A DNA stretch of 64,000 nt from Candidatus Omnitrophota bacterium (GCA_003140935.1 PLLJ01000041.1:12212-76211), one strand, 5' to 3'; counted from the stretch's first letter, positions 5,757 through 36,762 are shown. Numbers and translations: made by a program. The notes: a model not told the origin generated them from the letters alone.

Positions 5757-7547
5757 ATGTTAATGGCAACGCCACTTGAACGATGGGTAGAGGAACAAGC
5801 AAAGCTAACCCAACCTTCCAAGATCTACTGGTGTGACGGCACGGAAGCGGAAGCTAAAAAGTTGATCAAGATCGGTATGAAAGAAGAAACGATCAACGGT
5901 CATCCCGTTTTCCAAAAATTGAACGACAAACATTGGCCGAACGCCTATTACCATCGGTCTCATCCCAATGACGTTGCTCGCACCGAGCAGCTGACTTTTG
6001 TATGTCATCCGGCCAAAGAGACCGCGGGTCCGAACAATAACTGGATGGATCCAAAAGAAGCCAAAACAAAAATGACGGCACTTTTCGACGGCTGCATGAA
6101 GGGCCGCACCATGTACGTCATGCCTTACATGATGGGTCATCCCAAATCCCCTTACGCGAAGGCTTGTGTCCAGATTACGGACAACAGTTATGTCGCCGTC
6201 AGCATGCGCATCATGACCCGCATGGGAAAAGAAGCTCTCGACCGTATCGGAAGTTCTGAGAATTTTGTCCGCGGCCTCCATTCCGTCGGAGATCTCCATC
6301 CCGAACGCCGTTTTATCATACACTTCCCACAAGAAAATCTTGTCTGGAGTTTCGGCTCGGGCTATGGTGGCAATGCCTTACTGGGGAAAAAATGCTTCGC
6401 CCTCCGGATCGCTTCCTGCATGGGGCAAAAAGAAGGCTGGCTCGCCGAGCACATGCTTATCATGGGGGTCGAAGATCCGAAGGGCCAAGTCACTTACATC
6501 GCAGCGGCCTTCCCCTCAGCCTGCGGTAAAACCAATCTCGCGCTCATGCAATCCGCTTTACCGGGCTATAAGGTCTGGACTTTGGGCGATGATATCGCAT
6601 GGCTTAACATCGGCCCGGACGGGCGACTTTATGCCATTAATCCCGAAGCCGGATTTTTCGGCGTTGCGCCGGGAACGTCGCTTAAAACAAATCCGAAAAT
6701 GATCGAGACGCTGAAGAATAAGAAATTCTTCCCGACTCTTTACACCAATACCGCGATTGACAATGACACGAATGAACCCTGGTGGGAAGGCCTGGATGGT
6801 GCTGTCCCCAAGAGCGTCACGGACTGGCAGGGCAACGCTTGGGATCCTTCCAAGGGAACCAAGGCCGCTCACGCCAATTCCAGGTTCACGGTGTCGATCC
6901 TGAACTGCCCCACGCTTTCCAAGGAATTCGACAACCCCCAAGGCGTTCCGATCTCCGCGATCATTGTGGGAGGGCGTCGCAGCAAGCTGATCCCTCTCGT
7001 CATGGAGGCTTTTAACTGGCAGCACGGTGTTTTTCTCGGCACCCGCACTGGTTCTGAGACCACGGCCGCGGCCGCACATCAGCTCGGAGTCCTGCGCCGC
7101 GATCCTATGGCCATGCTCCCTTTTTGCGGTTATAACATGGGCGACTATTTTGCCCACTGGCTCAATGTCGGAAAGAAGCTTAAAAATCCGCCCAAAATCT
7201 TCTCCGTCAATTGGTTCCGCACCGATGAAACCAGCAAATTCATGTGGCCAGGTTTCGGCGACAACATCCGCGTGATCAAGTGGATCATCGACAGGGTCCA
7301 GGGCAAGGTTGTCGCGAAAGAAACCGCTCTCGGTCTTCTTCCGGATCTGAAAGACCTCGATCTTTCGGGGCTCAATATCCCCCGCGAGACCGTGGATAAG
7401 CTTTTCTCGATCGATCCACCGGAATGGACGGGCGAGCTACAGGATATCGAGAAATATCTTTCACAGTTCGGCTCGCGCACTCCGGAAGCGATCTGGGAAG
7501 AATACCGGTCCCTTGCAGAAAAACTGGGACAATCCGTTTCGAAGTAA
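5757..7547 (+). CDS. pckG: Phosphoenolpyruvate carboxykinase (GTP)
   Basis: 596 aa. GTP-PEPCK signatures SGYGGNALLGKKCFALRIAS and the kinase-1a motif AAAFPSACGKTN. Ribosome-binding site AAGGAG 5 nt before the ATG. Confidence 0.95.
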   Translation: MLMATPLERWVEEQAKLTQPSKIYWCDGTEAEAKKLIKIGMKEETINGHPVFQKLNDKHWPNAYYHRSHPNDVARTEQLTFVCHPAKETAGPNNNWMDPKEAKTKMTALFDGCMKGRTMYVMPYMMGHPKSPYAKACVQITDNSYVAVSMRIMTRMGKEALDRIGSSENFVRGLHSVGDLHPERRFIIHFPQENLVWSFGSGYGGNALLGKKCFALRIASCMGQKEGWLAEHMLIMGVEDPKGQVTYIAAAFPSACGKTNLALMQSALPGYKVWTLGDDIAWLNIGPDGRLYAINPEAGFFGVAPGTSLKTNPKMIETLKNKKFFPTLYTNTAIDNDTNEPWWEGLDGAVPKSVTDWQGNAWDPSKGTKAAHANSRFTVSILNCPTLSKEFDNPQGVPISAIIVGGRRSKLIPLVMEAFNWQHGVFLGTRTGSETTAAAAHQLGVLRRDPMAMLPFCGYNMGDYFAHWLNVGKKLKNPPKIFSVNWFRTDETSKFMWPGFGDNIRVIKWIIDRVQGKVVAKETALGLLPDLKDLDLSGLNIPRETVDKLFSIDPPEWTGELQDIEKYLSQFGSRTPEAIWEEYRSLAEKLGQSVSK

Positions 7548-7562
7548 GGATATCTTCAAAAA

Positions 7563-7600
7563 AAGGCAGGCCGCTTGATCACAAGCCGCCTGCCTTTTTT
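7563..7600. terminator. Bidirectional rho-independent terminator between convergent pckG and metH
   Basis: A GC-rich inverted repeat, GGCAGGCCGC...GCCGCCTGCC, is flanked by an A-tract upstream and a T6 run downstream (AAAAAGGCAGG...CCTGCCTTTTTT). Confidence 0.6.
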
Positions 7601-7606
7601 ATCTGT

Positions 7607-10600
7607 TTAAGCGCTGAAGTACTTTGCTTGCGGATGATGGACGATGATGGCTGAGGTGGATTGCTCCGGCGCCATCTGGAAGGTCTCACTCAGACTGATC
7701 CCGATCTTTTCCGCCGGAAGAACATGGAAAAGTTTTTTCTGATCCTCAAGATTCGGACATGCCGGATATCCGAAGCTGTAACGCGACCCCTGATACCCCT
7801 GCCGGAAGATCTCATCTTTGGTGCGTTTGTCCCGTTGATCGATCCCGAGATCGCGACGGATCAGAAGATGCGTGTACTCGGCCAGAGCCTCAGCAGCCTC
7901 CACGGAAAGTCCATGAAGATAAAGATATTCCGCATATTTATTCGCCTTAAAAAGTTTTTTCTCCACCTCACTGGCACGCTTACCCACGGTCACCGCATGG
8001 AAAGCCACAATATCAGTCTCCCCTCCCTTCGGTCTGAAAAAATCCGCAATGCACTGATAAGGCTCCCGTGATTGCCGGGGAAATGTGAACCGGGTCAATT
8101 CATTCTGAGCGGACCCATCCAACACGACCAGGTCATTCCCCTCGGAATAACACTTGTAGAAGCCATAGATGACCTTCGGCTCCAAGATCTTCTCACGGAC
8201 CGTTTGCGCCTTGAATCGTTCGAAAATGGGTTCCACATTCTCCTGAAGATAAAGTTCGAATTCGCGCGGAGTTCTGTCCCCTTGCTTAAATTGCCACTGG
8301 GCCCGGTAAAGCGCGATCTTGTTGATCCAGGGGAATACCTCTTGCATCCGGAGATTCTTGAGAATCCGGTAGCCAAAAAACGGAGGCTTGGGTATGGGGT
8401 TATCGCGATGAACGTGAAACGATGGCCCCTTTATGACATGCACGGCACTCGAAAGTGGCGGAACAGCTTTGGGCGGCGGAGCAGGCGGAACCGGAATAAC
8501 CGGCGTGGAGGTTTTAGCCTCCTGCTTTTCCGGAGCCGAACCCTGCTTGATCCTTTCCATGATCTTGAGACCGGAAAAGGCGTCGCGCCCATAATGAACC
8601 GGTCCCTGATAGGCCTGCGCGAGGTCACGCTCTACGTAACGCTCCGTGAGCGCCGCACCGCCACAGATCACCGGCAACTTGATCCCGCGCCGGCTCATTT
8701 CCTCAAGGTCCTCTTTCATGACGAGCGTTGATTTCACTAAAAGTCCCGAAAGCCCGATCGCATCCGCACGATTCTCGATCGCCGCTTTCATGATCGCCTC
8801 AACCGGCTGCTTGATCCCGATATTGAAAACCTTATAGCCGTTATTGGTGAGAATGATGTCGACCAAATTCTTCCCAATGTCATGAACATCACCCTTGACG
8901 GTCGCCAGGACGATACGTCCCCGCTCCTGGCCCTCCGATTTATCCATGAACTGCTCCAAATAGGCCACGGCTTTTTTCATAACCTCCGCCGACTGAAGCA
9001 CAAAAGGAAGCTGCATCTTCCCCGCGCCAAAAAGTTCTCCGACCACTTTCATACCCTCCAGCAAAAGCTCATTGATGATCTCTAGCGGTTTGTATTTTTT
9101 AAGAGCTTCGTCCAGGTCCGCGGCAAGATCATCGGAACTACCGTCAAGAATATGATTTTTCAGGATCTCCTCAACCGTGCCGGCCTTTTCGCGAGGCTTC
9201 TCAGCCATTCCCTGTTTGCCAGAAAAATGCGCAATGTATTCCTGCAAAGGGTCTTTACCGTCGATCCACTTGTTATGCAGCAATCTCTTTGCGATCTCAA
9301 GATCGTCCGCTGCGATCTTGAAGATCGGCACGATCTTTTGGGCATGAACGATCGCGGCATCAAGTCCCGCCTCCACACATTCATGCAGATAAACGCTGTT
9401 CAACACCTGCCGGGCATGCGGCGCAAGACCAAAAGAAATATTGCTGATCCCGAGGATCGTATGGACATCGGGCAGTTCTCTCTTAAGGCGGCGAATGGCC
9501 GCTATGGTTTCGGGCGCCGCGTTGCGGAACTCCTCACTGCCACTCCCAACGGTGAAAGTCAGCAGATCGAAGAAAAGATCTTCCGGCCGGATGCCGTACT
9601 GCTGAGTCACGATCTGATAAATGCGCTTGGCAACACGAAGCTTTTCCTCACGCGTTTTCGCCATGCCTTTTTCATCGATCGTCAAAGCCACTAAGGCGGC
9701 ACCGTATTTTTTCGCCATGGGACAGATCCTGCGTAACCGTTCACCGCCATCCTCGAGGTTGATCGAGTTGATGACGGGCTTTCCCGCGACATGCTTCAGG
9801 GCCTCCTCGATCACCGCATATTCCGTTGAATCGATCATCACCGGAACGGTGACATGCTGGTTGAAACGGCTGATCACTTCGCTCATATCTTTTTTTTCAT
9901 CGCGCCCGACATACGCCACGCAAAGATCCACGAGATGTGCGCCTTCTTTTACGGCCTCGCGCGCCACATTGACGATCGCGTCATAATCTTCGCGCTCAAG
10001 AAGCTGCTTGAATTTTTTACTGCCGTTGGCGTTCGCCTGCTCGCCTACCAGAAGCGGCGGGGGTTTTTGCGCATAGGGAGAGATCCCGTAAAGGCTTGCG
10101 CAAGCGGGTTCATGTTTGGGCGTCCGTTTTTTGGGAATGCATTTCCCCACGCGATCTACGACGGCTTTTAAGTGTTCGGGCGTCGTACCGCAGCAACCTC
10201 CCACGATCGAAACACCGAATTCTTTGACAAAACGTTCGTGGAAATCCGCAAGTTCCGTGGGGGTCAAATGATAATGAGCCGCGCCGCCGACATTCTCCGG
10301 AAGTCCGGCATTCGGTAAAACCGAAATATGTTTGACGGAATTTTCACAAAGCGTGCGAACGTGTTCAACCATTTCGGCGGGACCTGTCGCGCAATTCATC
10401 CCGATCACATCCACCGGGAACATCTCGAGCGTAGCGATCACCGCATGAATGTCTGTTCCAAGCAGCATCGTGCCCGTAGGCTCAAGAGTGACCTGGGCCA
10501 TGAGCGGCAACCGACGGCCCGTCTCTTTAAAATATTCCACCGCGGCAATAATAGCGATCTTGGTTTGAAGCAGGTCTTGGCAGGTTTCAATGAGCAGTCC

Positions 10601-23213: not shown

Positions 23214-25259
23214 CTAACCGCGGGAGAACGTCATCTCCAAGACACGGCCGTCTTTGCGCGCAACGTGAATGTTGAGCGGATGGCGGCCCTCCTTCGAATA
23301 AACCGTCACTTCCCCGCTCATCAGATCGCGGACGGTCATCTTCCCTTTGATCTTGTCAAGCGCCGGAAGATAGATCGCGGCGCTCTTATCTTCATTTCCG
23401 TTATTGACCACCACGAGAAAATAATGTCTGCCCCGGCTAAAAAGCGCCGTTTTGATATCCCGTGTCATTGAATTACTGACCAGCGGTGTTTTGAGAGAGT
23501 TCAAAACCCCGAGCACTAAATTCGGCGTCGGCTCCATCCCCAAGTGTATGATCTTTCCTTTGCCGACTTTTTTAATGTATCCGACCGTCTGTTTCCCGTA
23601 GGTCCCGAGATCCGCTTGGATCTTTTCACATCCCTTTGCCTTAAAAACATAAACCGAACTATTGACCGCGATCGGCGCGACACCCTTGCCGAGCGTTAAT
23701 GTAAATTGCCGTTTGAACTCAAAAAGAGTGCGCTCCGGCTCTTCAAATCCAATCACTTGATACGGTTTAAAATCGTTGTCTTTGCGCGGAAAGGACCGGA
23801 ACGCCACCAAAGTTCCGCCTTCCTCCACGTAACGTCGCAAATTCTGATGCGCGGTCTTCTCAAGCCACTGATTGCCAGAATAAAAGACTACTTTTTTCTG
23901 TGGAAGTTTGCAACGGGGATCGCATACGTCATAATCCACATCCCCTTGATAAAGCGCAGTAAGAATGGGGCTGTTATGCGTAAGCGTCCGGGCCGCGTAC
24001 TGAAGCGGATTGAAGGTAACGCCGATCTCGGTTAGTTTCTTAAGCGAGGTCGGCTTTAACTGCTTAAAAACGGAAACAATCTGTTTAAAAACATCATAAA
24101 GTTCGCCGCGCACCCGACCCCATTCGTTGATCGGCGACATGTACCAGTTATCACGATTGACAAGCATGTACCAATTCCACCCTTTGACCCCCGCAAGCAG
24201 CGCGGAAAAACAGATCATCCGGTAATGGTTGGGCGTGAGCACGCTGGTTTCATAATGGCGGCCGTGCCAGATGCCCGACTGGAATTCCGCGATGAACGGG
24301 AGCTTAGAAACACTCGCGAGATAACGGATCTTGTCGCAAAACTTACGATGCTCAAACTCATCTTCTTTGAGTTCGTTGGAAGGATAGAGATCCAACCCGA
24401 CTCCGTCCGCGACTTCCTGGAAATCAGCCCAGTCGTGCGCATAAAAGAATGGATAGGTGTTCAAGTAGATCGGAATATCGACCCCAAGATCGCGATACAT
24501 CTGGATGCTTCTCTTCGCAACCTCCTTGGAATACCCATACTTGAATTTGAAATAATCAAGATGCCGCTTAAGCTCCTTATCCCCCTTCAGCGGAAGCCCC
24601 GTTTCGTGAGCAAGCATGGTCGCGATAAAAGGCGATGCTTCCAGGAAAGACGCGTAATTCGTGCCCCAGCATTCGTTCAAGGCGGGAAGATCCCCCTTGT
24701 AAAGATCGCGCATGAAATCCTGGAAAAGTCCTGGCTTTTCCGAAAGTCCGTACTGATGTCCGAATATGTCCGGCCATGGATCAATCTCATTATCCGCCTG
24801 AAGCATCAGGATATGACCGTTCTTGCGTGATGCCAGATAAGGCATGAAGATCTTGCCTGCTTGTTTCAAATATTCCTTGGCGTAGGACAGGAACTTGGGA
24901 TGCAGGCGATGATATTTGTAGGCATAATCAGGAACGCCGTCCCGCGGCCATTCGCTGTAAATATAGGGCCCCGGCCTGAGGATAAGCCAGAAATTTTCTT
25001 TGCGGGTCAATTCGAGAAATGCTTTGAGGCTGCGGGCCGCATCGGTCTTGCCGGTGAAATCAAAATGGCCCCGCTTATACTCGTGAAAATCCCAGGGGAC
25101 ATACGTGGAGATGGTCTCAAGGCCCATTTCCCTGACGCGGTGAAGGGTTTCACGCCAATAATTGGGATTGAGACGCCAGTAATGGACTTCGCCGGAAATG
25201 AGCGGCACTTCTTTCTTCCCGACAAAGATCTTTTGGTCCTTGATCTCGACTTTAGGCAT
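23214..25259 (-). CDS. Glycoside hydrolase family 35-like beta-galactosidase (cytoplasmic)
   Basis: [40 protein letters not shown] matches the GH35 N-terminal TIM-barrel signature (YVPWNxHE). The acid/base region QADNEI is present. I place the start at the ATG at 25259 (MPKVEIKDQ), which overlaps the last codons of leuS by 8 nt. The track's N-terminal extension MNTRASKSS... is probably spurious. Confidence 0.8.
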
Positions 25260-27711
25260 CCGCCACCACAAGGTTGATCGTGCGCCCCGGAACGATGATG
25301 ACCTTTTTGACTGTCTTCCCCACAAGGAGCTCTTTGACGCGCGGGTGTTCAAGAGACATCTGTTTCATCGCGTCTTCGCTCTGACCATGAGAAACGACCA
25401 TTTTCGCACGCACTTTACCCCCCACCAGAATGGCCATCTCGGTCTGATCCTCGACGAGATACTTTTCATCATACTCGGGCCATTTTTCATAAGCAAGCGT
25501 CTTGGTATGACCCAAACGCTGCCACAGCTCTTCCGCCACGTGAGGTGCAAGGGGCGCCAAGAGAAGCAGGAACTTCTCCAGAACTTCCCTCGCGTGGTCT
25601 TGTCCCTGTGCTATTTCGTTCATAAAGATCATCAAGGCCGAGATCGCCGTGTTGAATCGCAACCCCTCCATATCTTCCGTCACCTTTTTGATCGTCTTGT
25701 GGAGTGTCTTCAATTCGACGGCATTGGGCACGCGCGGAACGATGCTCGCATGAAGTCTTTCGTCCTTATCGAGAAAAAGCCTCCACACTTTCCCGAGAAA
25801 TCTGTAGACACCTTCCACGCCGGAATTTGCCCATGGCTTTGTCATTTCCAAAGGTCCCATGAACATTTCGTAAAGCCGGAGACTGTCGGCGCCGTACTGC
25901 GCGATCATCTCATCGGGATTGACCACGTTGCCGCGCGACTTGGACATCTTCTGGCTATCTTCGCCGAGGATCATGCCCTGGTTGGTAAGCCTCTGGAACG
26001 GTTCGGGAGTAGAAACAACGCCCATGTCATAAAGCACCTTGTGCCAGAACCTTGAATAAAGCAGATGAAGTACCGCGTGTTCCGCGCCGCCGACATAAAG
26101 ATCCACATTCATCCAGTATTTTTCTTTTCGAGGATCGACCGGGGCCTTCGTGTTTTTCGGATCAAGATAGCGAAGATAATACCAGCACGAACCCGCCCAT
26201 TGAGGCATGGTGTTCGTTTCGCGCGTGGCTGGGCCGCCACATTTCGAACATTTGCAATGGAGCCAATCCTTGGCTTTGGCAAGCGGCGGTTCGGCATTCC
26301 CGGTCGGTGTGTAATCTTTCATTTCCGGAAGGCAGAGCGGCAACTCACTTTCGGGAATAAGGACAGGACCGCATTTCGCACAATGCACAACCGGGATCGG
26401 CTCACCCCAGTAGCGCTGACGGCTGAAGAGCCAGTCACGGAGTTTGTACTGGACCGCTTCTTTGCCAATCCTCCGTTCCTCAAGCCACTTCGTGATTTTC
26501 TTTTTCGCTTCTGGTGTGGAAAGCCCGGTGATGAGCCCGGAATTCACGCAGAGACCGTCTCCCTCGAATCCTAATGATTCCTTTCCTGCCGGCGCCTGAA
26601 CCACCACCTCCACCGGAAGCTTGTAAGCTTTGGCGAATTCAAGATCACGCGTATCATGGCCCGGCACGGCCATAATAGCACCCGTCCCGTATCCCATAAG
26701 CACATAATCCGCGATCCACACCGGGATCTTCTTATCATTCACGGGATTGATCGCATAAGCGCCCGTAAAAACGCCTGTTTTCTCTTTGGCAAGGTCGGTG
26801 CGATCAAGATCGGATTTATGTGTCGCGGTGGCCACATAAGCCCGTACGGCCTTCTTCTGGGCCAACGTCGTGATCTTTGCCACCATGGAGTGTTCCGGCG
26901 CTAAAACCATATACGTTGCTCCGAAAAGAGTGTCCGGCCGCGTCGTGAAAACACGAATGACGCCGGTGCTTTTTTCTAATCTGAAATCGACTTCCGCGCC
27001 AACGGACTTCCCGATCCAGTTACGCTGCATCTCCTTGATGGATTCGGACCAATCCAAAAGATCCAGATCTTTTAAAAGACGCTCGGCATAGGCCGTGATC
27101 TTGAGGATCCATTGTCGAAGCGGACGGCGGTAGACATCCTTATGGCCTTTGCGCTCACAGGTGCCGTTCGCGTCCACTTCTTCGTTCGCGAGAACGGTCT
27201 TGCAGCCATCGCACCACCACACCGGGATCTCGGATTCATAGGCCAAACCTTTTTCAAAAAGTTTCATGAATATCCATTGAGTCCAGCGGAAATAATCGGG
27301 ATCCGTCGTATCGATCTCGCGTTCCCAGTCATAACTAAAACCGACCTGGCGGATCTGGCGTTTGAAGGTCTGGATATTCTTCTGGGTGGTCTCGCGAGGA
27401 TGCGTACCGGTCTCGATGGCGTATTGCTCGGCGGGAAGTCCGAACGCGTCCCAACCCATGGGATGCAAAACATTGAACCCGCGCATGCGTTTATAACGAC
27501 TGACAATATCGGTCGCAGTATAACCTTCGAGATGGCCCACATGGAGGCCGGAACCGGAAGGATAGGGAAACATGTCGAGAACGTAATATTTTGGTTTTTC
27601 TCCCCCGGGATCGCCGGGGTCAGGAGACCGGAAGGTTTGGTGATCGGCCCAGTAGGTCTGCCATTTTTTTTCGATCACGTCGAAAGGATATGCTTTAAAG
27701 CCGCTGGCCAT
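25252..27711 (-). CDS. leuS: Leucyl-tRNA synthetase
   Basis: 819 aa. HIGH motif (HVGHLEGY), KMSKS (KMSKSRGN), and the CP1 editing domain. Ribosome-binding site AGGAGA 9 nt upstream. Confidence 0.95.
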
Positions 27712-27740: not shown

Positions 27741-27825
27741 TGCGGAGAGAGAGAGTCGAACTCTCATGGTATTGCTACCGCTGGATTTTGAGTCCAGTGC
27801 GTCTGCCAGTTCCGCCATCCCCGCA
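27741..27825 (-). tRNA. tRNA-Leu(CAA), class II with a long variable arm
   Basis: Hand-folded. Acceptor GCGGGGA/TCTCCGC with one G-U pair. Anticodon stem CTGGA/TCCAG, loop CTCAAAA, anticodon CAA. A 15-nt variable arm with a GGTA/TACC stem. T arm GAGAG-TTCGACT-CTCTC. Discriminator A; CCA not encoded. It produces the MAELADALDSKS artefact ORF in the track. Confidence 0.85.
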
Positions 27826-27828
27826 AAA
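27786..27828. repeat. 43-bp perfect direct repeat, copy A (the 5' 39 nt of tRNA-Leu plus 4 nt of its upstream flank)
   Basis: TTTTGAGTCCAGTGCGTCTGCCAGTTCCGCCATCCCCGCAAAA is identical to 36552..36594. Confidence 0.9.
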
Positions 27829-28313
27829 GCTATAACTGCATCAATTATAATGACTTGCAGAATATTCGAATTCCGTCTTATTCTCTGAGTATCCTGCCTT
27901 GTGTCCACTTTTGTGTCTATTTTTTTCTTTTATGTCCTAGAACATTGTCCAACACACCCACAACTTTTTTGCTTGCTCAAATGGCTGCAACGCATGACCA
28001 CCTGAATCGACGCCTGCCCTAGAAGTCTCGAAACAGCCACAAGATCAACTTCGTTCATTACTAAATGAGAAGCGAAGATGCGGCCATCCTCAACCTTCGC
28101 CTACTCTAACGCAACCTCAAATGCTTCTCGATGGTACGAGGAGAAGATATTAGGCGAGTCCGGCCCTTTTTTCAATAACAGAATCAGATTTAATCAGATT
28201 TTTACACACGACAGTTATAAGGAGAGACGAGGCCCGCGTTAGCGAATGTCGTAATTGATGGTAAAAGCGACAATGGGTAAGACGCTTTCAACACGTCCTG
28301 ATGAAATAGGACA

Positions 28314-29162
28314 TCAAGGACTTGATCTTTCCGTCGTGGATTTGTGATGCTTTTGTTCGATCCGATCGATAGCCAGCAGGATCCCGAACAAGATCGCCTC
28401 GGGTCGCGGAGGACAGCCCGGTATGTACACGTCGATTGGCAGTATGTTAGCTGCGCCGCCCGCACTCGCATAGCTAGTGCCGGCAACACCGCCGGAGCAT
28501 GCGCACGCACCAACCGCAATAACTACCCGCGGTTCAGCGATAGCCTCAAAAGTACGGCGAGCTGCCAGTTCAAGATTACGCGTGACGCACCCTGTGACAA
28601 TGACACCGTCTGCATGACGCGGAGAAGCCACAAAATCTATACAGAGACGACGGATGTCATAATGCGGAGCCAAAAGAGCATTGAGCTCCCAGTCACACGC
28701 ATTGCATGAACCTGTGTCCAAGTGACGCAAATGGAGCGAGTCCTTAAATATATTGTAAATGCGCGTATTGATGCGGTCGACCACTGTTGTTTGATCTACA
28801 AGCTCAAGGGGAATTTCAGCCACCCTTCCCTGGGCATCACGGCTATATTGAATCAGCAGATCCTTGCGCAGTCGACCGGAAAGCTCAAATTCCCGATTCA
28901 TTCGAAGAGCCCCTCCACGAGCCTTGTCCGCGCAACGCCCGCAGAAAATGCATCGCGCAAGATCGATCGTATAGACCCCCGAGAGCCCATCCCGGGTGAT
29001 GGCCCCCGTCGGGCATACCGAGGCTGGTGGCAGATCGGAAAAAAGACATCCCGTCCGCGGCTCCGGGACACCCCGAAAACGTTCGGGCGGGTCGGTGCGG
29101 ACGGCGGGATAGCGTGTCGTCACCACCCCCTGGCGTAAACCTTTGATCAGATTTCGTAACAT
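28314..29162 (-). CDS. Fused NuoI-like 4Fe-4S ferredoxin and NuoB-like small subunit of a group-4 [NiFe]-hydrogenase (HyfH-HyfI / HycF-HycG fusion)
   Basis: N-terminal ITxRYP motif (VVTTRYPAVR) and CIFCGRCADKA...CP, as in NuoI/HycF. The C-terminal half carries the NuoB/HycG cluster-ligand motifs TGSCNACDWE, GACACSGG and IPGCPPRPE. Confidence 0.85.
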   Translation of the reverse strand: MLRNLIKGLRQGVVTTRYPAVRTDPPERFRGVPEPRTGCLFSDLPPASVCPTGAITRDGLSGVYTIDLARCIFCGRCADKARGGALRMNREFELSGRLRKDLLIQYSRDAQGRVAEIPLELVDQTTVVDRINTRIYNIFKDSLHLRHLDTGSCNACDWELNALLAPHYDIRRLCIDFVASPRHADGVIVTGCVTRNLELAARRTFEAIAEPRVVIAVGACACSGGVAGTSYASAGGAANILPIDVYIPGCPPRPEAILFGILLAIDRIEQKHHKSTTERSSP

Positions 29163-29199
29163 TCGCTACCTCTCTGTTTCGGCATTCCCTGTTCTGCGT

Positions 29200-30834
29200 C
29201 TAGCGATCGCAACAAGCATAGCAGAGCTCAAAACTTTTATTCACCAACGGAAAATCGGGAATGATCGCATTTAAGGCCGCATACGGTACGGCCGGCCAGT
29301 TGGCATAACTGGCGGAACGCACATGATAGCGGTCCACACATCCGTTCCCGTCGGTGCGCAGCCAGTGAATGGACGCGCCGCGCGGCGACTCCACCGCGGA
29401 CAGCCCGATCCTCCAGGGCGGCAGGACTTCGGGAAGCGGGAGAAAAAAAGGGCCCGGCGGCAACTTCTTGGCCAGGAGCTGAAGGAGCCGTATGGATTCA
29501 AACGCTTCGGCCACCCGTACTTTGACGCGGGACTGAACATCCCCCGAAGATTTTGTCACCACCTGTGGGAGGACGGCCCCCGGCATGGCATAGCCCGCGT
29601 GGGGGTGGTCCCGGCGCGCATCCCGATCGATCCCGCTGGCGCGGGCCGTCACCCCCGTCACTCCCAGATCTTTTGCGATCTGAGCGGATAAAGTGCCGGT
29701 GCAATCCATGCGGTCCATCACCGAGGAGTTGTACGAAAAGCTCGTCATGAGTTCCTCAAGCTGTTTGCCGAGGGTGGCGGTGATCGTAGAAACCGCCGCC
29801 ATTTGCTGCGCGGTAAAATCGTAACGGACCCCGCCGGGAAACACCATGCCGCGCAAAAAACGGTTTCCCGTCAGCCGTTCGTTTTCCCGCTGGAGCTCTT
29901 CCTTGAGACGCGCCCCCGCCGAGGTTCCCCAGTGATAACCGACGCCCGCACAAATCGCGCCGATGTCTCCCACATGGTTATAGAGCCGCTCCAATTCCAG
30001 GGCGAGGGTCCGGAGACACTGGGCGCGCGGCGGGACCGTCACGCCGGCGATCTGTTCGACGGCTTCGGAAAAAGCAAGAGCGTTCGCGACCGAACAGGCA
30101 CCGCATAAACGCTCGGCCAGGTAAAAGGCCTCATCGAGGGGAAGGCCTTCCGCCCGCTTTTCAAGTCCCCGGTGAGCGTAGAACAGCCGCGCATCGAGGT
30201 GAAGCACGGTCTCCCCCACGGAGCTGAATCGGAAATGACCCGGCTCAATGATGCCCGCATGGATCGGACCCACGGGGATCTCCATGACCCCTTCTCCCTC
30301 GATCATCAGGTGGGGAAATTCCACCGCGGATAGTTTTTCGGGCCGCATTTTCGGATCGAAATCTTTACGCAACGGATAGAGCCCCGGAGGCCAACCATCG
30401 TGTAAGACCAATGATCGCGGATCGGGATGCCCCTCGGGATCGATGCCCAACATGTCCCGCATCTCCCGTTCGTGCCAATTGGCCGCCGGCACCAGCGACG
30501 TGATCGAAGGCACCCGGGGATTTCCCGGATCCAAAGAGACCCGAAGCGTCACAAAGAGATCCGCGAGCGGGCCCTTGAGAGGGCTTGCCGGCTCGAAAAT
30601 GTAGCGGACCTTAAAGTCGCCGTCGGCCTCTCGCCGTTCATCGGTCGCAACGATGATCGCCAGCCCCATGCCAAGATCGTTTATTAGGGCACCCACCGCG
30701 GCTAAGAGATCCTCCTTTTGTTGAAGGCGTACAGTGAGGTCCTGCGATCGGGGGCCCGTCAGAAAAGCGGCGCGATCCCCCATCCGGCCACTGAGCAGTT
30801 TCTGGATGCTTTTGGCTGACAGCCTAGTGCCCAA
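29200..30834 (-). CDS. Group-4 [NiFe]-hydrogenase large subunit with N-terminal NuoC-like domain (HycE/HyfG-like)
   Basis: The NuoC signature WHEREMRDMLGI is present. N-terminal Ni-binding pair RLCGACS and C-terminal ELCYACCDR (CxxC). 544 aa. Confidence 0.85.
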   Translation of the reverse strand: MGTRLSAKSIQKLLSGRMGDRAAFLTGPRSQDLTVRLQQKEDLLAAVGALINDLGMGLAIIVATDERREADGDFKVRYIFEPASPLKGPLADLFVTLRVSLDPGNPRVPSITSLVPAANWHEREMRDMLGIDPEGHPDPRSLVLHDGWPPGLYPLRKDFDPKMRPEKLSAVEFPHLMIEGEGVMEIPVGPIHAGIIEPGHFRFSSVGETVLHLDARLFYAHRGLEKRAEGLPLDEAFYLAERLCGACSVANALAFSEAVEQIAGVTVPPRAQCLRTLALELERLYNHVGDIGAICAGVGYHWGTSAGARLKEELQRENERLTGNRFLRGMVFPGGVRYDFTAQQMAAVSTITATLGKQLEELMTSFSYNSSVMDRMDCTGTLSAQIAKDLGVTGVTARASGIDRDARRDHPHAGYAMPGAVLPQVVTKSSGDVQSRVKVRVAEAFESIRLLQLLAKKLPPGPFFLPLPEVLPPWRIGLSAVESPRGASIHWLRTDGNGCVDRYHVRSASYANWPAVPYAALNAIIPDFPLVNKSFELCYACCDR

Positions 30835-32290
30835 GGGTTACCTCCACAGCGCGGGTAAAAATAGTATCAAGCACCGGAGGGATCATAAGCCCCAGCCCGA
30901 TCATGACAACCACCAGCAGCGACATGGCCAGCACTCCGGAAGCGGGTTCCCCACCGCGGGGCACGGCCGGATCCGGTTCGCCGAACGCCATTTTACCGGC
31001 GTGGTGGATGAGCCCGGCAAAGATGGCGATCACCATCAGAAGAAAAATAGCGATTGCGACAAAGTAGCCTCCCGCAAGACCGGCTTTGAGCACGAGCAGT
31101 TCGCTCACAAAGATGGAGAACGGCGGCGTGCCGGCCAGAGAAAAGGCCCCCAACATGAGGAACGTTCCGGCATAGGGAGCGGCGCGGATAAATCCCCGGA
31201 TCTTGTCCATCGTGTGGGTTTTGTACCGGTCGATGGCATCCCCCGCCACAAAAAAAACCAGCGCCTTGGTCACCCCGTGATTGATAACATGAAACAAGGC
31301 AGCGTAGGTTCCCAAAGGGCCGCCGATCCCGAGGCCCAGGGCGATGATGCCCACGTGTTCTACGCTGTGGTAACCCAGCAGGCGTTTGAAATTTTGCTGA
31401 GTCAGAATAAAGGGTGTTGCGACCACGATCGAGATGATCCCGAATAATAAAAGCAGATGCCCTGAAAATCCGGGGCCGCAGGCACCGATGGCGATCGTGT
31501 GAAAGCGGATGATACCGAACAAAGCACACTTAATCAGCGCGCCCGACAACAACGCCGACACCGGCGTCGGCGCCTGGCTGTGGGCATCGGGTAGCCACAT
31601 ATGCATGGGTGCAAGGCCAGCCTTGGTGCCGTACCCGATCATGATGAAAATAAATCCGATCCGCACGATGTTCGGGTCGAGTCGGGATGCCATCGAAGCG
31701 ATGGTTGTGAAGTTCATGGCCCCCTCGGATGCCCCAGCGTGCGCAGCCGCGGCATATACCAACACCGTACCGAACAGGCCAAATGAAATACCGATCGTGG
31801 TAACAATGATGTACTTCCACGCCGCCTCAAGGCCGTTGCTGTCGAGGCGAAAACCGACCAGGAGTGCCGAGGTGATGGTCGTGGCCTCCATGGTGATCCA
31901 CAGCAAGCCCAAGTTGTCAGCGAGCACCGTGATCAGCATGGTGGCGATAAAGACCTGGGTGAGGGCGAAGTATTTCGAAAGGCGGTGTTCAGCCATACCC
32001 CCGCTGGCGACCTCACGACGCATCCAACCGACGGTGTAAATGGCGGTGGTCACGCTGAGCAAGGCAATCAAACCGAGAAATACCACGGTCACAGCATCCG
32101 CGGAAAATGTTTTTACCGCTCGCAATGGCCCGGCATGCATAACCGCCTGCGCAACAGCCCAGACTAGCATAACGATCGTTGAAGTGCTTACGATGTCGAG
32201 CAGGTTCAACAGACGGCGGTCCTTGACCCCCAGCATCGCTAGGCCAACAACGGTCGGAACTAGCGGCAGTATCCATAATAAAGAAGACAT
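30824..32290 (-). CDS. NuoM/NuoN/MrpD-type antiporter-like membrane subunit (HyfD/HyfF-like)
   Basis: 488-aa polytopic protein with the conserved NuoL/M/N-family core (..LWLPDAH.., ..GI.R..IA..G..). Confidence 0.8.
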   Translation of the reverse strand: MSSLLWILPLVPTVVGLAMLGVKDRRLLNLLDIVSTSTIVMLVWAVAQAVMHAGPLRAVKTFSADAVTVVFLGLIALLSVTTAIYTVGWMRREVASGGMAEHRLSKYFALTQVFIATMLITVLADNLGLLWITMEATTITSALLVGFRLDSNGLEAAWKYIIVTTIGISFGLFGTVLVYAAAAHAGASEGAMNFTTIASMASRLDPNIVRIGFIFIMIGYGTKAGLAPMHMWLPDAHSQAPTPVSALLSGALIKCALFGIIRFHTIAIGACGPGFSGHLLLLFGIISIVVATPFILTQQNFKRLLGYHSVEHVGIIALGLGIGGPLGTYAALFHVINHGVTKALVFFVAGDAIDRYKTHTMDKIRGFIRAAPYAGTFLMLGAFSLAGTPPFSIFVSELLVLKAGLAGGYFVAIAIFLLMVIAIFAGLIHHAGKMAFGEPDPAVPRGGEPASGVLAMSLLVVVMIGLGLMIPPVLDTIFTRAVEVTLGH

Positions 32291-32295
32291 CCGTG

Positions 32296-32952
32296 TTATC
32301 CTTTCAGCTCATCCAAGTCGGCAATGTCAGAACCGATGCTTGATTTGACGCGAAGAATGATCACTCCCATCACCAGCGCGGCAAGGATCACGTCGAGGGT
32401 GACTCCAATCTCAATGATGAGCGGCATGCCTTGGCTGATCGCCATAGCCGTAAAAAAGATCCCGTTCTCGGCAGCAAACAATCCGACCATCTGCATCAGG
32501 GCCGTACGCCGAGACATCATGACCAAAATACCGATGAGCATGAGCGCGATCCCAATCGGAAGGGCATTTCCGGTAATGACCTGCTTGAGCAAGACGAGAG
32601 ATGATGACAGGTAAAACGCAAGCATGACAATGGCCGCGGCAATGGCAAGCGTCGTCGTAACCGGGATAAGCGGATCGATCTTATGATGGATCCGCATGCG
32701 GTGGATGACCCGCAACAGCAGCCAGGGCAACACGAGGACTTTGACCACGAGTGTCAAGCCAGCGATGACCCACAGATCGGTGTTGTGAGTGGCTGCGCCA
32801 AGCACCGCACCGGCAAGAGCGATGAAGATCGACTGAACGGCCATCGTATAAATAGCCCGGTAAAGGTCTCCTGCCTCCAGAATAATGATCATCGTAATGA
32901 GCAGAAACGCTCCGATAATGTCGATGAGGTGTGTTGCCAGTTCTAAACTCAT
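32296..32952 (-). CDS. Small hydrophobic hydrogenase membrane subunit (HyfE-like)
   Basis: 218-aa multi-TM protein whose size and position match HyfE of Hyf-type operons. No soluble domain. Confidence 0.55.
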   Translation of the reverse strand: MSLELATHLIDIIGAFLLITMIIILEAGDLYRAIYTMAVQSIFIALAGAVLGAATHNTDLWVIAGLTLVVKVLVLPWLLLRVIHRMRIHHKIDPLIPVTTTLAIAAAIVMLAFYLSSSLVLLKQVITGNALPIGIALMLIGILVMMSRRTALMQMVGLFAAENGIFFTAMAISQGMPLIIEIGVTLDVILAALVMGVIILRVKSSIGSDIADLDELKG

Positions 32953-33926
32953 AGAAGCCTCAACGCAACCGCCAGAAAAGAGCTTAACAAACTAATGCTA
33001 AGGAACTGTGGAAGGTTAAAAAAACGCAGTTTCGCGTATGTAGATTCGACAATCGCTAAAAAGACCGATAGCGCCAAAGTTCCCAAAATAAAAGCGCCTA
33101 GTCCCATTACCAGCGCTTGAGGATTCGTGTTTGCAGCTTTCCACGGAAAGAATAGCGCCTGCACAAAAGCGATGAGGACGATCTGTTTGATGTGATGGGC
33201 AAGGACCAGACAGCCGAATCCGGGGCCCGAGTGTTCGAGCAGCATCCCTTCGTGTAGCATGGTGAGTTCTAGATGAGTATCCGGATTATCGACGGGAATA
33301 CGGCCCGTTTCGGCTAACAACAAAATAAGCATCGCGAAAAGAGCCAGGAGGTCGGCAGCCCCGAACGATCCGCGCATCCCTACCGGATGACCCGCGATCA
33401 CCCTCAGATCGGTGGTCCCCGCCACGATCGCGACCGAGAATATCACCAGGATCAACGCCGGCTCCACCAATGTGGCCACGGTCATTTCGCGAGACGCCCC
33501 CATGCCGCCAAAGGCTCCGCCCGCGTCGAGAGCCGCAATGGCCGTCAGGAATCGCGCCAGGGCAAACCAGCCCGCCAGCAAAAGAGCATCCCCGAGAGGC
33601 AACAGCGCCGCATGTCCGGCCGTAACGGGGGCAAAAAAGACAGGGACCAAGGTTGCCGCGGCACAGGTGGCCCCCAGGACGAGTACCGGCACCACGCGAA
33701 AAAATGAGCCGGAGGTGTCGGACTGGACCGTGCCTTTGCGCAGAAGTTTTAGGAGATCGCGGTAAGGCTGGAGGATCCCGGCACCGCGACGGCATTGTAA
33801 GCGGGCCTTCATTTTCTGGATCAAGCCCGTCACCAACGGTCCGAGCAACACCAGAAGGACCACCTGGATAAGAGGCAATATCCATCGAGTCAGCGTTTGG
33901 TCCACCTTACCCCCTTCCGAATACAA
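32949..33926 (-). CDS. NuoH-like membrane subunit (HycD/HyfC-like)
   Basis: 325-aa polytopic protein. Length and hydrophobicity pattern fit formate hydrogenlyase subunit 4/NuoH. It overlaps both neighbours by 4-20 nt. Confidence 0.75.
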   Translation of the reverse strand: MYSEGGKVDQTLTRWILPLIQVVLLVLLGPLVTGLIQKMKARLQCRRGAGILQPYRDLLKLLRKGTVQSDTSGSFFRVVPVLVLGATCAAATLVPVFFAPVTAGHAALLPLGDALLLAGWFALARFLTAIAALDAGGAFGGMGASREMTVATLVEPALILVIFSVAIVAGTTDLRVIAGHPVGMRGSFGAADLLALFAMLILLLAETGRIPVDNPDTHLELTMLHEGMLLEHSGPGFGCLVLAHHIKQIVLIAFVQALFFPWKAANTNPQALVMGLGAFILGTLALSVFLAIVESTYAKLRFFNLPQFLSISLLSSFLAVALRLL

Positions 33927-35973
33927 GCAAAGTGACCAGCAACGTGATCAGGACAAATCCGATGTAATCATGGATGCGGCCCGTGCTGCGCTGGCGAATG
34001 GCGTTCGCAACGCGCGTCACGCCGGCCTGAACGTGATTATAAAAATGGACGAGAGCCAGGTCGACTACGTCACTTTGCCAGTGGAGCTGGCTTAACACGT
34101 AGGGTGTCGACCCGGTTTTCTTGCGAACGGTCCGTTTCGGTTGGTAAAGTAAGGCGAAAATGAAACGCAACGGTTTGGCGAACGCTGTGGCGGTGTAGTC
34201 GAACCGGCTTTGAGGGGCCATCCCGCATGTCCAGGTCGGTTCCCGGCGACGTGCGAGGGCGCGCGGCCAAACAACTATCCCCCAGGCCACCAGGGCCACG
34301 GCGCCGAACAACACGGCCGCTGCCGTCATCGACACGGCGGTCCCCGTCCCGGGATTCGCGCTTGCCAACAACACCAGGGGACCGCGGGCCGTGATCAGTT
34401 GGCTGGGACCGACACCCCCCAAAAGCCTCATGACAGGAGAGTCCAGCAAAACCATGGCATACCCGGGCATGATCCCGATCATCACGCATACCGTCGCCAG
34501 CAAAACCATCCCCGCCAACATACTCGGAGCCCCTTCAACAGCCTCTGCAGCGTGGGTAGAACGGGGTCGCCCCAGAAAAGTCACCCCAAAAGCCTTCACA
34601 AAACAAGCGGCTGCCAGCCCGCCGGTCAGAGCGAGAGCCGCAGCGACGGCGATCACGACCAACCCACTTCCGCTGCGCAGATACGCGCTGGCCAGGATCA
34701 GAGTCTGAAAGGTCATCCATTCGCTGACAAATCCATTGAGCGGCGGCAGGGCCGAGATTGCGACCGCGCCGATCAGAAAGAGCCATGCTGTCCACGGCAT
34801 GCGTCGCGCGAGTCCGCCGAGTTCCTCCATGTTCAGGATATGGGTGGCCGTTTGAACGACGCCGGCACAAAGGAATAAAAGCCCTTTGAACGCGGCATGG
34901 TTGAGCGTGTGCAGGAGAGCCGCCGCCAACCCGAGCGCGGCAAGTGCATCGGCCGCACCCCCGCGGTGTGTCAAAAGCATGGCCATACCCACGCCCATCA
35001 GGATGATGCCTACGTTCTCAACGCTGTGAAACGCCAGCAACCTTTTAAGATCGTGCTGCTGAAGCGCATAAAGGACGCCGATGATGGCTGAGATCGCGCC
35101 GAGCACCAGGACGATCCATCCCCACGAGGGAGGGAGGGGCCCGGTCGCGGGGGCTAATAGATCCAAACCGAGACGCAATATTCCATAGATCGCTACTTTG
35201 AGCATCACCCCCGACATCAGAGCCGAGGCATGACTAGGCGCGGCGGGGTGCGCCTGAGGAAGCCAGATGTGAAGCGGGACAATGCCGGCCTTGGCCCCAA
35301 GTCCTACGAGCGCAAGAAAAAAAAGGACGGACCGTTCGGTTCCGGACAGCGCCGCGGCCGCTGTCCGCATCGCAGCGAAATCAAAACTCCCGGCATGGAC
35401 CGCCAGCGTCAAAAAGACAACCATCAGCAGTGCCGTTCCTGCGTGCGCCATGATCATGTAGATCAAACCGGCGCGAGTATTGCTTTTTTTCCCTTCGGAT
35501 ACGACTAAGACATAACTCGCCAGCGTCATTCCTTCCCATGCCAGAAGAAAAGTCATCGCGTCGCCCGCGCACAGGACAAGAGCCATCGAAGCGACAAAAA
35601 TATTGATCCCCAGGACTTCCACCGCAGGGGATGAGCCGGAGTGCGCCTTGAGGTACGCCGGACCGTAAATCGCTGCCGCGATCGTGACGATCGAGACGAC
35701 CAACAGAAAAAATGCGCTGAGTCCGTCTAAGGTAAGCACTAAATTCGCGAAGGGAAAAAGATGCGGAAGTTCAACGTGTATTGCAGTCTGCAGCGCGCCG
35801 CCGGTCAGTCGTTGGATCGCCAGAGCCAGCCCGGCCAACGCGCCAATGAGCAAGGCAACGTGACCCAGAACACGGGTCGCATTCCCCCACCGGCTTCCCA
35901 AAATCGATACGGCCGCACCCGCGCCATACGCCCCCAACATGATCCATAACCCACCGATTGACATCTCGCTCAA
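33907..35973 (-). CDS. NuoL-like membrane subunit (HyfB-like), first gene of the hydrogenase operon
   Basis: 688 aa. The N-terminal architecture is colinear with E. coli HyfB/NuoL (..LSAFFLLVVSIVTIAAAIYGPAYL.., ..FLLAWEGMTLASY..). Confidence 0.85.
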   Translation of the reverse strand: MSEMSIGGLWIMLGAYGAGAAVSILGSRWGNATRVLGHVALLIGALAGLALAIQRLTGGALQTAIHVELPHLFPFANLVLTLDGLSAFFLLVVSIVTIAAAIYGPAYLKAHSGSSPAVEVLGINIFVASMALVLCAGDAMTFLLAWEGMTLASYVLVVSEGKKSNTRAGLIYMIMAHAGTALLMVVFLTLAVHAGSFDFAAMRTAAAALSGTERSVLFFLALVGLGAKAGIVPLHIWLPQAHPAAPSHASALMSGVMLKVAIYGILRLGLDLLAPATGPLPPSWGWIVLVLGAISAIIGVLYALQQHDLKRLLAFHSVENVGIILMGVGMAMLLTHRGGAADALAALGLAAALLHTLNHAAFKGLLFLCAGVVQTATHILNMEELGGLARRMPWTAWLFLIGAVAISALPPLNGFVSEWMTFQTLILASAYLRSGSGLVVIAVAAALALTGGLAAACFVKAFGVTFLGRPRSTHAAEAVEGAPSMLAGMVLLATVCVMIGIMPGYAMVLLDSPVMRLLGGVGPSQLITARGPLVLLASANPGTGTAVSMTAAAVLFGAVALVAWGIVVWPRALARRREPTWTCGMAPQSRFDYTATAFAKPLRFIFALLYQPKRTVRKKTGSTPYVLSQLHWQSDVVDLALVHFYNHVQAGVTRVANAIRQRSTGRIHDYIGFVLITLLVTLLVFGRG

Positions 35974-36551
35974 TAGGCCCTCTTTTCAATGTCCTTTTTT
36001 TATTATAGTCGGGAAAATAGCTAAAATCATCATAGAATTAGGCGGAGAGAAAAACTATATCATTCTGGTATTTTTATACGAATGTCGCTTTAGATTGGAA
36101 AAACGACATTTAAATAGGCGGTTTTACTCGATATTGAAGCTCGCGGTTTATGACCTTTCATGGTGGGGCCAATCAGAATGATACTAAAAATGATAAGAAT
36201 GAAACGAGGGTGGGAGTTTAGTTTTTGAGGGATAAAAAATAAAAAGCTGGTGTCCGAAAAATGTCCAGAATGCAGCTCATTTTATCAAAAACAATGCAGC
36301 CGCATAAAACGGGTAAAAGGTGGAAATCCTTGAATTTAAGTACCCGCTTCTGTGTTTACTTCGCCCGTTGGTTCTATAACCGAAATCCAACATGAATCCC
36401 CTTGTGACCATTTTGTGTCTATTTTAGCGCTGAATAAGCCTTATGTGAGGTCAAGAGAGGTCAGCACAGAACAAATCAAAAAAGATATTTTGCAGAGGAG
36501 AAATGATGTAAATGAAGGAAGCACAAGAGGTTTGCAAAAAAAGGCGGACGC

Positions 36552-36594
36552 TTTTTGAGTCCAGTGCGTCTGCCAGTTCCGCCATCCCCGCAAA
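36552..36594. repeat. 43-bp perfect direct repeat, copy B: an orphan 5'-half fragment of tRNA-Leu(CAA), possibly an att remnant or pseudo-tRNA
   Basis: Identical to 27786..27828. The sequence diverges immediately on both sides. It has no anticodon-stem 3' strand, variable arm or T-arm, so it cannot be a functional tRNA. Confidence 0.9.
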
Positions 36595-36686
36595 ATTCAA
36601 CACAGAGCCACGAGTTCCATACCTTGAGCCGCTGGCATATCGGGCCCATACGACACCCCTACAGTCAAGACTCATAGCTGAAAGAA

Positions 36687-36762
<76 letters not shown>

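Follow-up and report, generated by a model that had tools for sequence, protein, structure and literature searches.

How did a set of genes for an energy-converting hydrogenase come to lie between two tRNA genes that related bacteria keep side by side? The question is raised by an interval of about 8.7 kb in a 64,000-nucleotide stretch of DNA from a Candidatus Omnitrophota bacterium (the window, by which we mean the whole stretch that was analysed). In this interval, six hydrogenase genes are bracketed by an intact tRNA-Leu(CAA) gene and a copy of the 5' half of the same gene. A preliminary description, made from the sequence alone, had read this arrangement as the insertion of an element that carried the 5' part of the tRNA. 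Our analysis supports this reading with two corrections, namely that a remnant of an integrase gene is present and that the hydrogenase module is separable from the ends of the element. We consider, with a probability of about 85%, that the interval is the immobilised remnant of a tyrosine-integrase element of reversed polarity, probably conjugative, that had been inserted in tRNA-Leu(CAA).

Two tRNA-Leu 5' halves of different ancestry

A repeat search of the window returned a 43-nt direct repeat, identical at 43 of 43 positions, whose copies lie at 27786-27828 and 36553-36595 on the minus strand. The perfect repeat and the position of its first copy had been given correctly in the preliminary description, and the second copy, placed there at 36552..36594, has to be shifted by 1 nt. 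Read in the direction of the tRNA, the repeat is composed of four leader nucleotides (TTTT) and positions 1-39 of tRNA-Leu(CAA), and it ends on the last base of the anticodon loop, at the 3' edge. This composition had already been recognised and agrees with the tRNA boundaries, as does the abrupt loss of identity at both borders, beyond which the flanking sequences diverge completely. The locus is made up as follows.

25252-27711, minus strand: leuS, leucyl-tRNA synthetase (Pfam tRNA-synt_1, editing domain, Anticodon_1)
27741-27824, minus strand: intact tRNA-Leu(CAA), on the side of the right attachment site, attR (Rfam RF00005, 53.9 bits; also found by ARAGORN)
27786-27828, minus strand: right copy of the repeat, four leader nucleotides plus tRNA-Leu positions 1-39, 100% identity
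36553-36595, minus strand: left copy of the repeat, on the side of the left attachment site, attL; displaced native 5' half, with positions 1-39 at 36553-36591
36592-36689, minus strand: native spacer between tRNA-Ala and tRNA-Leu, orthologous to the spacer of the empty site in locus L104
36690-36762, minus strand: tRNA-Ala(GGC) (Rfam and ARAGORN)

The intact tRNA-Leu lies 29 nt upstream of leuS and the fragment 98 nt downstream of tRNA-Ala(GGC), in the order first described. ARAGORN predicts a tRNA-Leu(CAA) longer than that of Rfam by one base at each end, and an Rfam search of the window and seven loci returned nothing but tRNAs. The tRNA-Leu of the window is 100% identical to those of the related loci L102, L104, L107 and L097.

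By its LeuS sequence the organism belongs to Candidatus Omnitrophota. At least nine related loci, with LeuS proteins 75-90% identical to that of the window, are free of the hydrogenase (L007/L100, L008/L101, L010/L106, L011, L015, L104, L105, L107 and L108). In these relatives tRNA-Ala and tRNA-Leu are separated by 16-230 nt with no hydrogenase between them, and the conserved order is o177-o102-o127-YdjC-113-aa exosortase-associated protein-tRNA-Ala-tRNA-Leu-leuS-GH35-type glycosidase. These empty loci bear out the ancestral arrangement that had been proposed, tRNA-Ala followed by tRNA-Leu and leuS, and indicate that the insertion is lineage-specific. In two of them, L104 and L107, tRNA-Leu and tRNA-Ala are each 100% identical to those of the window. 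L104 is also the nearest relative by synonymous divergence of leuS (dS 0.65), and its site is empty.

The two copies of the repeat have different neighbours. Over their whole length, the 98 nt that separate tRNA-Ala from the fragment can be aligned with the final 94 nt of the native Ala-Leu spacer of L104, with a score of 64 (shuffled sequences 15 ± 2.4; 0/1000 reach 64). The 98 nt ahead of the intact tRNA resemble none of the native spacers and match instead the 98 nt ahead of tRNA-Leu in L102, where the 3' end of an integrase gene lies (score 102, 0/1000 shuffles); neither junction matches across. It follows from the two alignments that the 5' half now next to tRNA-Ala is the native one, displaced, and that the functional tRNA received its 5' half and leader from outside. 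The reversed polarity of the insertion is shown by these alignments, and the unusual polarity suspected beforehand, with the element carrying the 5' part of the tRNA, is in agreement with both of them. Integration into the 5' region of a tRNA gene is 'considerably less frequent' than into the 3' region but is known, as in the archaeal case CalSub-E1 (PMC6563490, citing Zhao and Williams 2002).

The DNA comes from a metagenome, and short-k Logan contigs break at the repeat, as they would if an assembly or binning artefact had joined unrelated contigs. These contigs stop exactly at the repeat (L094 is 8784 nt long and L004 begins inside the tRNA), which is expected of a true 43-nt duplication. 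Three projects assembled this organism independently (L001, L002 and L003); each assembly contains both copies and spans both junctions with identical sequence, and the junction flanks are orthologous to the native spacer and to the integrase, as expected biologically. An artefact, named at the outset as something that could overturn the reading, thus has a practically negligible probability.

A dead integrase gene beside the intact tRNA

The preliminary description had stated that the interval contains no integrase. This is wrong, as the dead 3' third of a tyrosine-integrase gene lies next to the intact tRNA.

27841-28210, minus strand: tyrosine-integrase pseudogene, 3'-terminal third, with its stop codon TGA at 27841-27843, 16 nt before the tRNA

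The comparison was made with L102 (LeuS 88% identical), whose tyrosine-integrase gene is intact and encodes 376 aa with the domains Int_N and Phage_integrase. The stop codon of this gene lies 16 nt before the identical tRNA-Leu, which is followed by leuS, and two HTH_17 (Xis/AlpA-like) genes precede it. By tblastn, the L102 integrase matched 28163..27948 with residues 262-339 (59% identity, E 1.7e-21) and 27888..27844 with residues 362-376, and the nucleotide alignment of the two genes extends from about 28210 to the tRNA. The stub has lost 18 nt, and with them the conserved ASLHSLR stretch immediately ahead of HTFASH. A further deletion, of 8 nt, shifts the frame, Cys stands in place of the active-site Tyr, and LLGH has become LLGQ (His to Gln). 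No further relative of the L102 integrase was detectable in the 64-kb window, which holds no functional integrase. The earlier proposal that loss of the integrase explains the missing mobility genes is therefore right in substance, with the qualification that a recognisable stub remains. The two ends of about 0.5 kb are indeed AT-rich (42.9% GC in the X flank, 27829-28262, and 38.3% GC in the Y flank, 36049-36552), and the tRNA-side end, which holds the stub, cannot be called simply non-coding.

In every homologue of the L102 integrase, the gene runs into a tRNA gene from its 5' side. For the integrases of L177, L178 and L179 (74% identity), tRNA-Leu(CAA) begins 6 nt past the stop codon and is followed by leuS; for those of L181 and L182 (54%), tRNA-Leu(CAA) begins 9 nt past it. 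The open reading frame overlaps tRNA-Met(CAT) in L180 (74%) and tRNA-Leu(TAG) in L184 and L185 (49%), and in L110 (55%) the integrase gene reads toward tRNA-Leu(CAA) with broken 5' fragments lying between. A scan of IMG/VR with the integrase returned no close relative.

Could the repeat have arisen without any site-specific recombinase, either by RecA-dependent (Campbell-type) integration of a circular DNA through a chance 43-nt homology to the tRNA or as the remnant of a local duplication or deletion, which the preliminary description had kept as its alternative? Repeats of this length can support homologous recombination, and the lack of a functional integrase in the window is in line with such a route. 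However, the repeat is bounded exactly by the edge of the anticodon loop and by the fourth nucleotide before the mature 5' end, the integrase pseudogene, whose kinship with integrases is secured by tblastn at E 1.7e-21, abuts it, and intact integrase homologues occupy exactly the same position in six other contexts. These three points make both versions very improbable.

With site-specific insertion as the preferred reading, the following history can be proposed. The element would have integrated into tRNA-Leu(CAA) in reversed polarity through a crossover in or near the anticodon loop, presumably catalysed by its integrase, and its attachment site (attP) would have consisted of the 3' end of the integrase gene, the 16-nt leader and tRNA positions 1-39. 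The tRNA formed by integration would combine the 5' half of the element with the 3' half of the chromosome, while the native 5' half would remain, cut off, next to tRNA-Ala. Later losses would have removed most of the element, and with it the 5' two-thirds of the integrase gene and the Xis-like genes. Transcription of tRNA-Leu, and possibly of leuS, may now depend on a promoter in the integrase stub or on transcripts that continue from the hydrogenase operon; candidate start sites are a place around 27870 in the stub and a TATAAT at 27846-27851. The dependence of tRNA-Leu expression on the stub may be the reason for its persistence.

HTH_17 Xis-like genes stand ahead of every intact integrase that has upstream sequence, and in L184/L185 genes of the VirB4/TraC, CagX and TrbI types lie upstream of the integrase gene. 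In addition, L186 (integrase 75% identical) and L184 have a PC4/OEP/glycosyltransferase block in common. Since Xis-like and type IV secretion genes occur near related integrases, the parent of the window island was probably an integrative conjugative element (ICE). The island itself, with its six hydrogenase genes, holds no genes for type IV secretion, a coupling protein or a relaxase, and type IV secretion genes were seen only beside the 49%-identical integrase of L184/L185.

Cis-mobilisable elements (CIMEs) are derived from ICEs of the ICESt1/ICESt3 family in Streptococcus thermophilus. Judged by its sequence, the window island is CIME-like, both attachment sites being kept and the integration and conjugation modules lost. 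Like CIMEs, it is flanked by attL and attR, is devoid of functional recombination and conjugation modules and probably originated from an ICE by deletion; its integrase relatives are found in an element with VirB4, VirB9 and VirB10 genes. Unlike them, it has a partly decayed P arm and no sequence relation to the streptococcal elements, and its mobilisation in trans is only putative.

The island also resembles the classical tRNA islands and prophages of the anticodon-loop class (Williams 2002) by an integrase beside the intact tRNA, a repeated tRNA fragment, an anticodon-loop crossover, a foreign composition and empty sites in related genomes. The classical islands duplicate the 3' part of the tRNA, whereas this one duplicates the 5' part. 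With the reversed-polarity elements, for example CalSub-E1 (PMC6563490), it has in common a recombined tRNA 5' region, a 5' fragment at the far end and the need for the element to supply the 5' half and promoter of the tRNA. It differs from them by its Omnitrophota host, by integrase reading frames that end 6-16 nt before, or overlap, three different tRNA targets, and by the decay of the window copy with its hydrogenase operon. The island belongs to a known but rare kind of gene gain by mobile elements, of which it is a clear and not an unprecedented case. With it, a bacterial lineage of integrases directed consistently at the 5' side of tRNA genes is added to those known; the arrangement is rare, and tools built around 3'-fragment repeats may miss such elements.

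The same tRNA-Ala/tRNA-Leu site has received other DNA. L097 (same species as L006) carries at 6500-9885 a different 3.4-kb cargo, composed of an acyltransferase-3 gene and a PMT-like glycosyltransferase gene and ending in an integrase stub (residues 224-280); a tRNA-Leu fragment was not detectable at the left end of this insertion. L098 has an integrase stub and a tRNA-Leu pseudogene. For intact relatives, the 10 kb ahead of the integrase gene in L177, L181 and L110 yielded no convincing tRNA 5' fragment that could represent attL. A 17-nt tRNA match in L181 was considered as attL and rejected, as it lies inside a coding region and is probably due to chance.

The two arms of the island have one short motif in common.

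27897-27923, minus strand: diverged copy of a 26-27-nt motif inside the 3' end of the integrase gene, with two GACAC-type repeats about 11 nt apart
36049-36552, minus strand: Y flank, the element-side arm beside the tRNA fragment, 38% GC, with no detectable coding homology
36400-36425, minus strand: second copy of the 26-nt motif, 100% identical to the 3' end of the L102 integrase gene, in surroundings without homology

The copy at 27897-27923 overlaps a promoter-like TGGACA-16-GAGAAT at 27907..27880. The arrangement GGACAC-N5-GGACAC is kept at the same place in the divergent integrases of L110 and L181, though the repeats fall in different reading frames, which suggests a function at the DNA level. 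The motif could be an arm-type binding site of the integrase present on both arms, or a part of the tRNA promoter. Sites resembling GGTGTCCA are not enriched in the window (36 matches versus 34 expected).

A second integrase stub in the Y flank, as in a tandem array, was considered and rejected: beyond the 26-nt motif there is no significant homology, the scores being reached by 355/500 and 45/100 shuffles, and a single 26-nt stretch after the Y motif is marginal (16/500 shuffles). An intrinsic terminator at the junction of the fragment with the Y flank was rejected as well. A GGCGGA/UCCGCC stem followed by U7 exists there, but its fold is no better than that of shuffled sequences (z = -1.18), and a terminator scanner made no call at this junction; a terminator function of the stem is a weak possibility.

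A broader idea, which we consider rather unlikely, is that an entire integrase lineage of Omnitrophota integrative and conjugative elements has specialised in tRNA 5' halves, with the promoter of the tRNA and tandem GACAC-type binding repeats in the last ~100 nt of the integrase gene, a host that depends on this tail and a cargo that can be mobilised in trans. If it were true, the reliance of the host on the integrase tail for an essential tRNA (perhaps also for leuS) would explain why stubs survive in several species, and cargo flanked by attachment sites, such as the hydrogenase operon, would stay mobilisable in trans by incoming relatives.

The hydrogenase module and its second genomic context

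The six genes between the repeats all encode hydrogenase subunits, with the identities first assigned to them (HyfB, HyfC, HyfE, HyfF, a large subunit and a fusion protein).

28263-36048, minus strand: hydrogenase module proper, 7786 nt, matching locus L086 without gaps at 93.4% identity
28314-29162, minus strand: fusion of a ferredoxin with a NuoB-type small subunit, 282 aa (Pfam Oxidored_q6)
29200-30834, minus strand: NuoC-NuoD-type large subunit
30824-32290, minus strand: HyfF-like
32296-32952, minus strand: HyfE-like
32949-33905, minus strand: HyfC/NuoH-like (Pfam NADHdh)
33907-35964, minus strand: HyfB-like (NCBIfam hydrogenase-4 subunit B, 670 bits against a cut-off of 667)

Over the module, Pfam returned Oxidored_q6, NADHdh and two Proton_antipo_M matches. 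The large subunit has both Cys pairs that serve as Ni-Fe ligands, in RLCGACS and ELCYACCDR-stop (CGAC and CYACCDR), and its best match in the PDB is HycE of the formate hydrogenlyase of E. coli (7z0s_E, E 2e-95). It terminates at the Arg of CxxCxDR, and the absence of a C-terminal extension implies that no maturation protease is needed. The genes thus predict a group-4 membrane-bound [NiFe]-hydrogenase of the Hyf/formate-hydrogenlyase type. The island resembles the E. coli complex (PDB 7z0s) by its HyfB, HyfC, HyfE, HyfF, NuoC-NuoD-type large and NuoB-type small subunits. It differs in that ferredoxin and small subunit are fused, that the large subunit has no extension to cleave, and that formate dehydrogenase, HycB, Hyp (hypA-F) and protease genes are absent from the island. 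The linked formate dehydrogenase H and HycB-type subunit that define formate hydrogenlyase (group 4a) are accordingly missing from the island.

The composition of the module is foreign to its host. Its GC content is 57.7%, that of the remainder of the window 50.0% (segments as long as the module give 50.4 ± 1.0, maximum 52.6), and its tetranucleotide distance is 0.313 against 0.106 ± 0.016 in the rest (maximum 0.161). Both kinds of deviation, which had been put forward as informative about an insertion, place the module far outside the host range. Only one relative of the large subunit above 78% identity was found in 5.8 billion proteins (P0002, 95%), more than 10 congeneric species being sampled; the next homologues (≤78%) include some from metagenome-assembled genomes (MAGs) labelled Victivallales and from another Omnitrophota, in unrelated contexts.

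P0002 is encoded on L086, which matches the window from 36048 to 28263 without gaps at 93.4% identity and has unrelated flanks on both sides. These flanks have no DNA match to the window or to any fetched locus, and downstream of the module L086 has DUF4325, winged helix-turn-helix and TauE genes and no tRNA. The module is therefore separable from the ends of the element, and it does not include the X and Y arms. The six genes are intact throughout when window and L086 are compared; their dS is 0.14-0.30, their ratio of nonsynonymous to synonymous divergence (dN/dS) 0.08-0.18, and the operon is under purifying selection. The dS of leuS is 0.65-1.2 to every sampled congener, including L098, a locus from the sample that also yielded L086. 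Because the dS of the module is far below that of leuS, the module changed its genomic context far more recently than the species diverged.

These values bear on the converse history, in which the hydrogenase was inherited vertically at this locus and lost from all relatives through deletions with the 43-nt repeats as end points. A perfect empty site would result if the two repeats recombined, and the lineage of L086 does have the module, at 93% identity. Against this stand the composition, the dS of the module compared with at least 0.65 for leuS to any congener, the different locus of the module in L086, the empty site of L104, which is closest by leuS dS, and the next homologues (≤78%) in MAGs that include some labelled Victivallales and another Omnitrophota. 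Vertical inheritance is improbable on this evidence, and insertion by a mobile element is preferred.

At the limits of the module we observed a further direct repeat.

28243-28272, minus strand: 30-nt hairpin-type direct repeat, right copy, at the module boundary
36079-36108, minus strand: 30-nt hairpin-type direct repeat, left copy, a good hairpin (z = -5.4)

This repeat has the form (A)ATGTCGYTTTT...AAAGCGACAT(T). The pattern CGAATGTCG-N-CGACA occurs at these two places and nowhere else in the 64 kb, for 0.01 occurrences expected. The right copy resembles a hybrid between the first half of the terminator hairpin of L086 and the second half of the left copy of the window. The hairpin is also found twice in L086, after the module (7895-7925) and again 1.9 kb downstream (9740-9805). 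It may be a member of a terminator family that moves with foreign DNA, or a recombination site.

The hairpins raise the question of whether the hydrogenase travelled on the element at all. In a two-step history, decay would first have reduced the element to about 0.9 kb, a scar made up of the fragment, the Y arm, the hairpin, the stub and the tRNA, and the module would have entered later by a separate recombination at the hairpin site, in which the tRNA attachment sites took no part. The hairpin repeat, found twice for 0.01 expected, brackets the module exactly at or near the boundaries of homology, one of its copies is hybrid-like, and it recurs twice in L086, which has in common with the window only 28263-36048. 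Small scars and stubs are present at the same site in L098, L022 and L021, and in L097 a different cargo precedes a similar stub. However, a single internal deletion in a cargo-bearing element gives an identical end state, hairpins of this kind have no known recombinase or mechanism, integron-type core sites were not seen, and the left hairpin is 31 nt away, on the outer side, from the point where homology with L086 stops. We regard two-step entry as a serious contender, somewhat short of even odds. The hydrogenase as cargo of the element and the later replacement of the element's interior are rated nearly equally, each a little below an even chance, with the cargo slightly ahead.

Several points weigh against the interval being the remnant of a reversed-polarity element. 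For none of the intact family members were the two ends recovered together, and the 5'-half repeat as a property of the family is drawn from the window and from the constant orientation of the integrase gene toward the tRNA. The 3' strand of the anticodon stem is not mirrored in the fragment-side arm, where a clear dyad core site is not visible. An excised or empty form was not seen within the species, all of whose contigs carry the island. The 43-nt fragment has no substitution despite the decay of the neighbouring integrase gene, which points to a recent event, to gene conversion or to a retained function as an attachment site. The stubs of the window, L097 and L098 start at similar codons (~224-262), and this could reflect one old shared truncation instead of independent decay. 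Finally, since L086 has the module without the arms, the hydrogenase may not have travelled on this element. As the remnant of such an element, the island provides a junction-level record of the gain of an energy-converting hydrogenase in an uncultured Omnitrophota lineage. Metabolism inferred from MAGs of 'dark matter' phyla is affected, in that such a trait can be specific to a strain or a species.

Other elements and repeats around the tRNA pair

In one strain of the species of the window (LeuS 100%), a different element replaces the 5' part of tRNA-Ala (L003:1-1030 and L093:1-1900). It encodes a 204-aa tyrosine recombinase and a Phd/ParE toxin-antitoxin pair, it leaves a tRNA-Ala 3' fragment (about positions 31-73) beside the tRNA-Leu fragment, and it is polymorphic within the species. 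An island of more than 9.6 kb with SWIM, Fic, DDE transposase and SIR2-like genes (L103:1-9552) terminates in the same tRNA-Ala 32-73 fragment. These islands indicate that tRNA-Ala is used by elements of standard polarity and the adjacent tRNA-Leu by elements of reversed polarity; the pair is thus a two-sided insertion hotspot, with elements of the classical kind (L003/L093, L103) next door to the island. Near the attachment end of the tRNA-Ala element (L003:760-860), which is unrelated to the island, GGACAC/GTGTCC repeats about 11 nt apart (GGTGTCCATTAGGTGTCCA, GGTGTCCAAAATTGGACACC) resemble those in the tails of the tRNA-Leu integrases; the octamer is not enriched overall in the window.

In two related species, the tRNA-Ala/tRNA-Leu pair as a whole is inverted with respect to leuS and to the genes upstream (L007/L099/L100:9714-9885 and L010/L106:9645-9892), and L181/L182 have a similar inverted layout, with an element 5' of tRNA-Leu. 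Broken or duplicated 5' pieces of tRNA-Leu were found just upstream of the intact gene in L110:9500-9700, L013:1-125, L022:465-560 and L098:570-650, some of them split by GC-rich hairpin insertions. The L013 duplication, found where a contig ends, could have arisen in assembly. In L098, a near-full-length pseudogene of the window tRNA type is followed by a functional tRNA-Leu of the L015 type.

An element of about 100-170 nt recurs in the spacers around both tRNAs (L008:9800-9995, L015:9650-9840, L022:280-440 and 596-745, L097:6520-6600) and has no match in Rfam. Its layout is GAAGGGAGCACTTG - hairpin - GGCCGACC - GGCGCC, often terminating in a copy of a tRNA 3' end, and it may represent attachment-site scars or a small repeat family.

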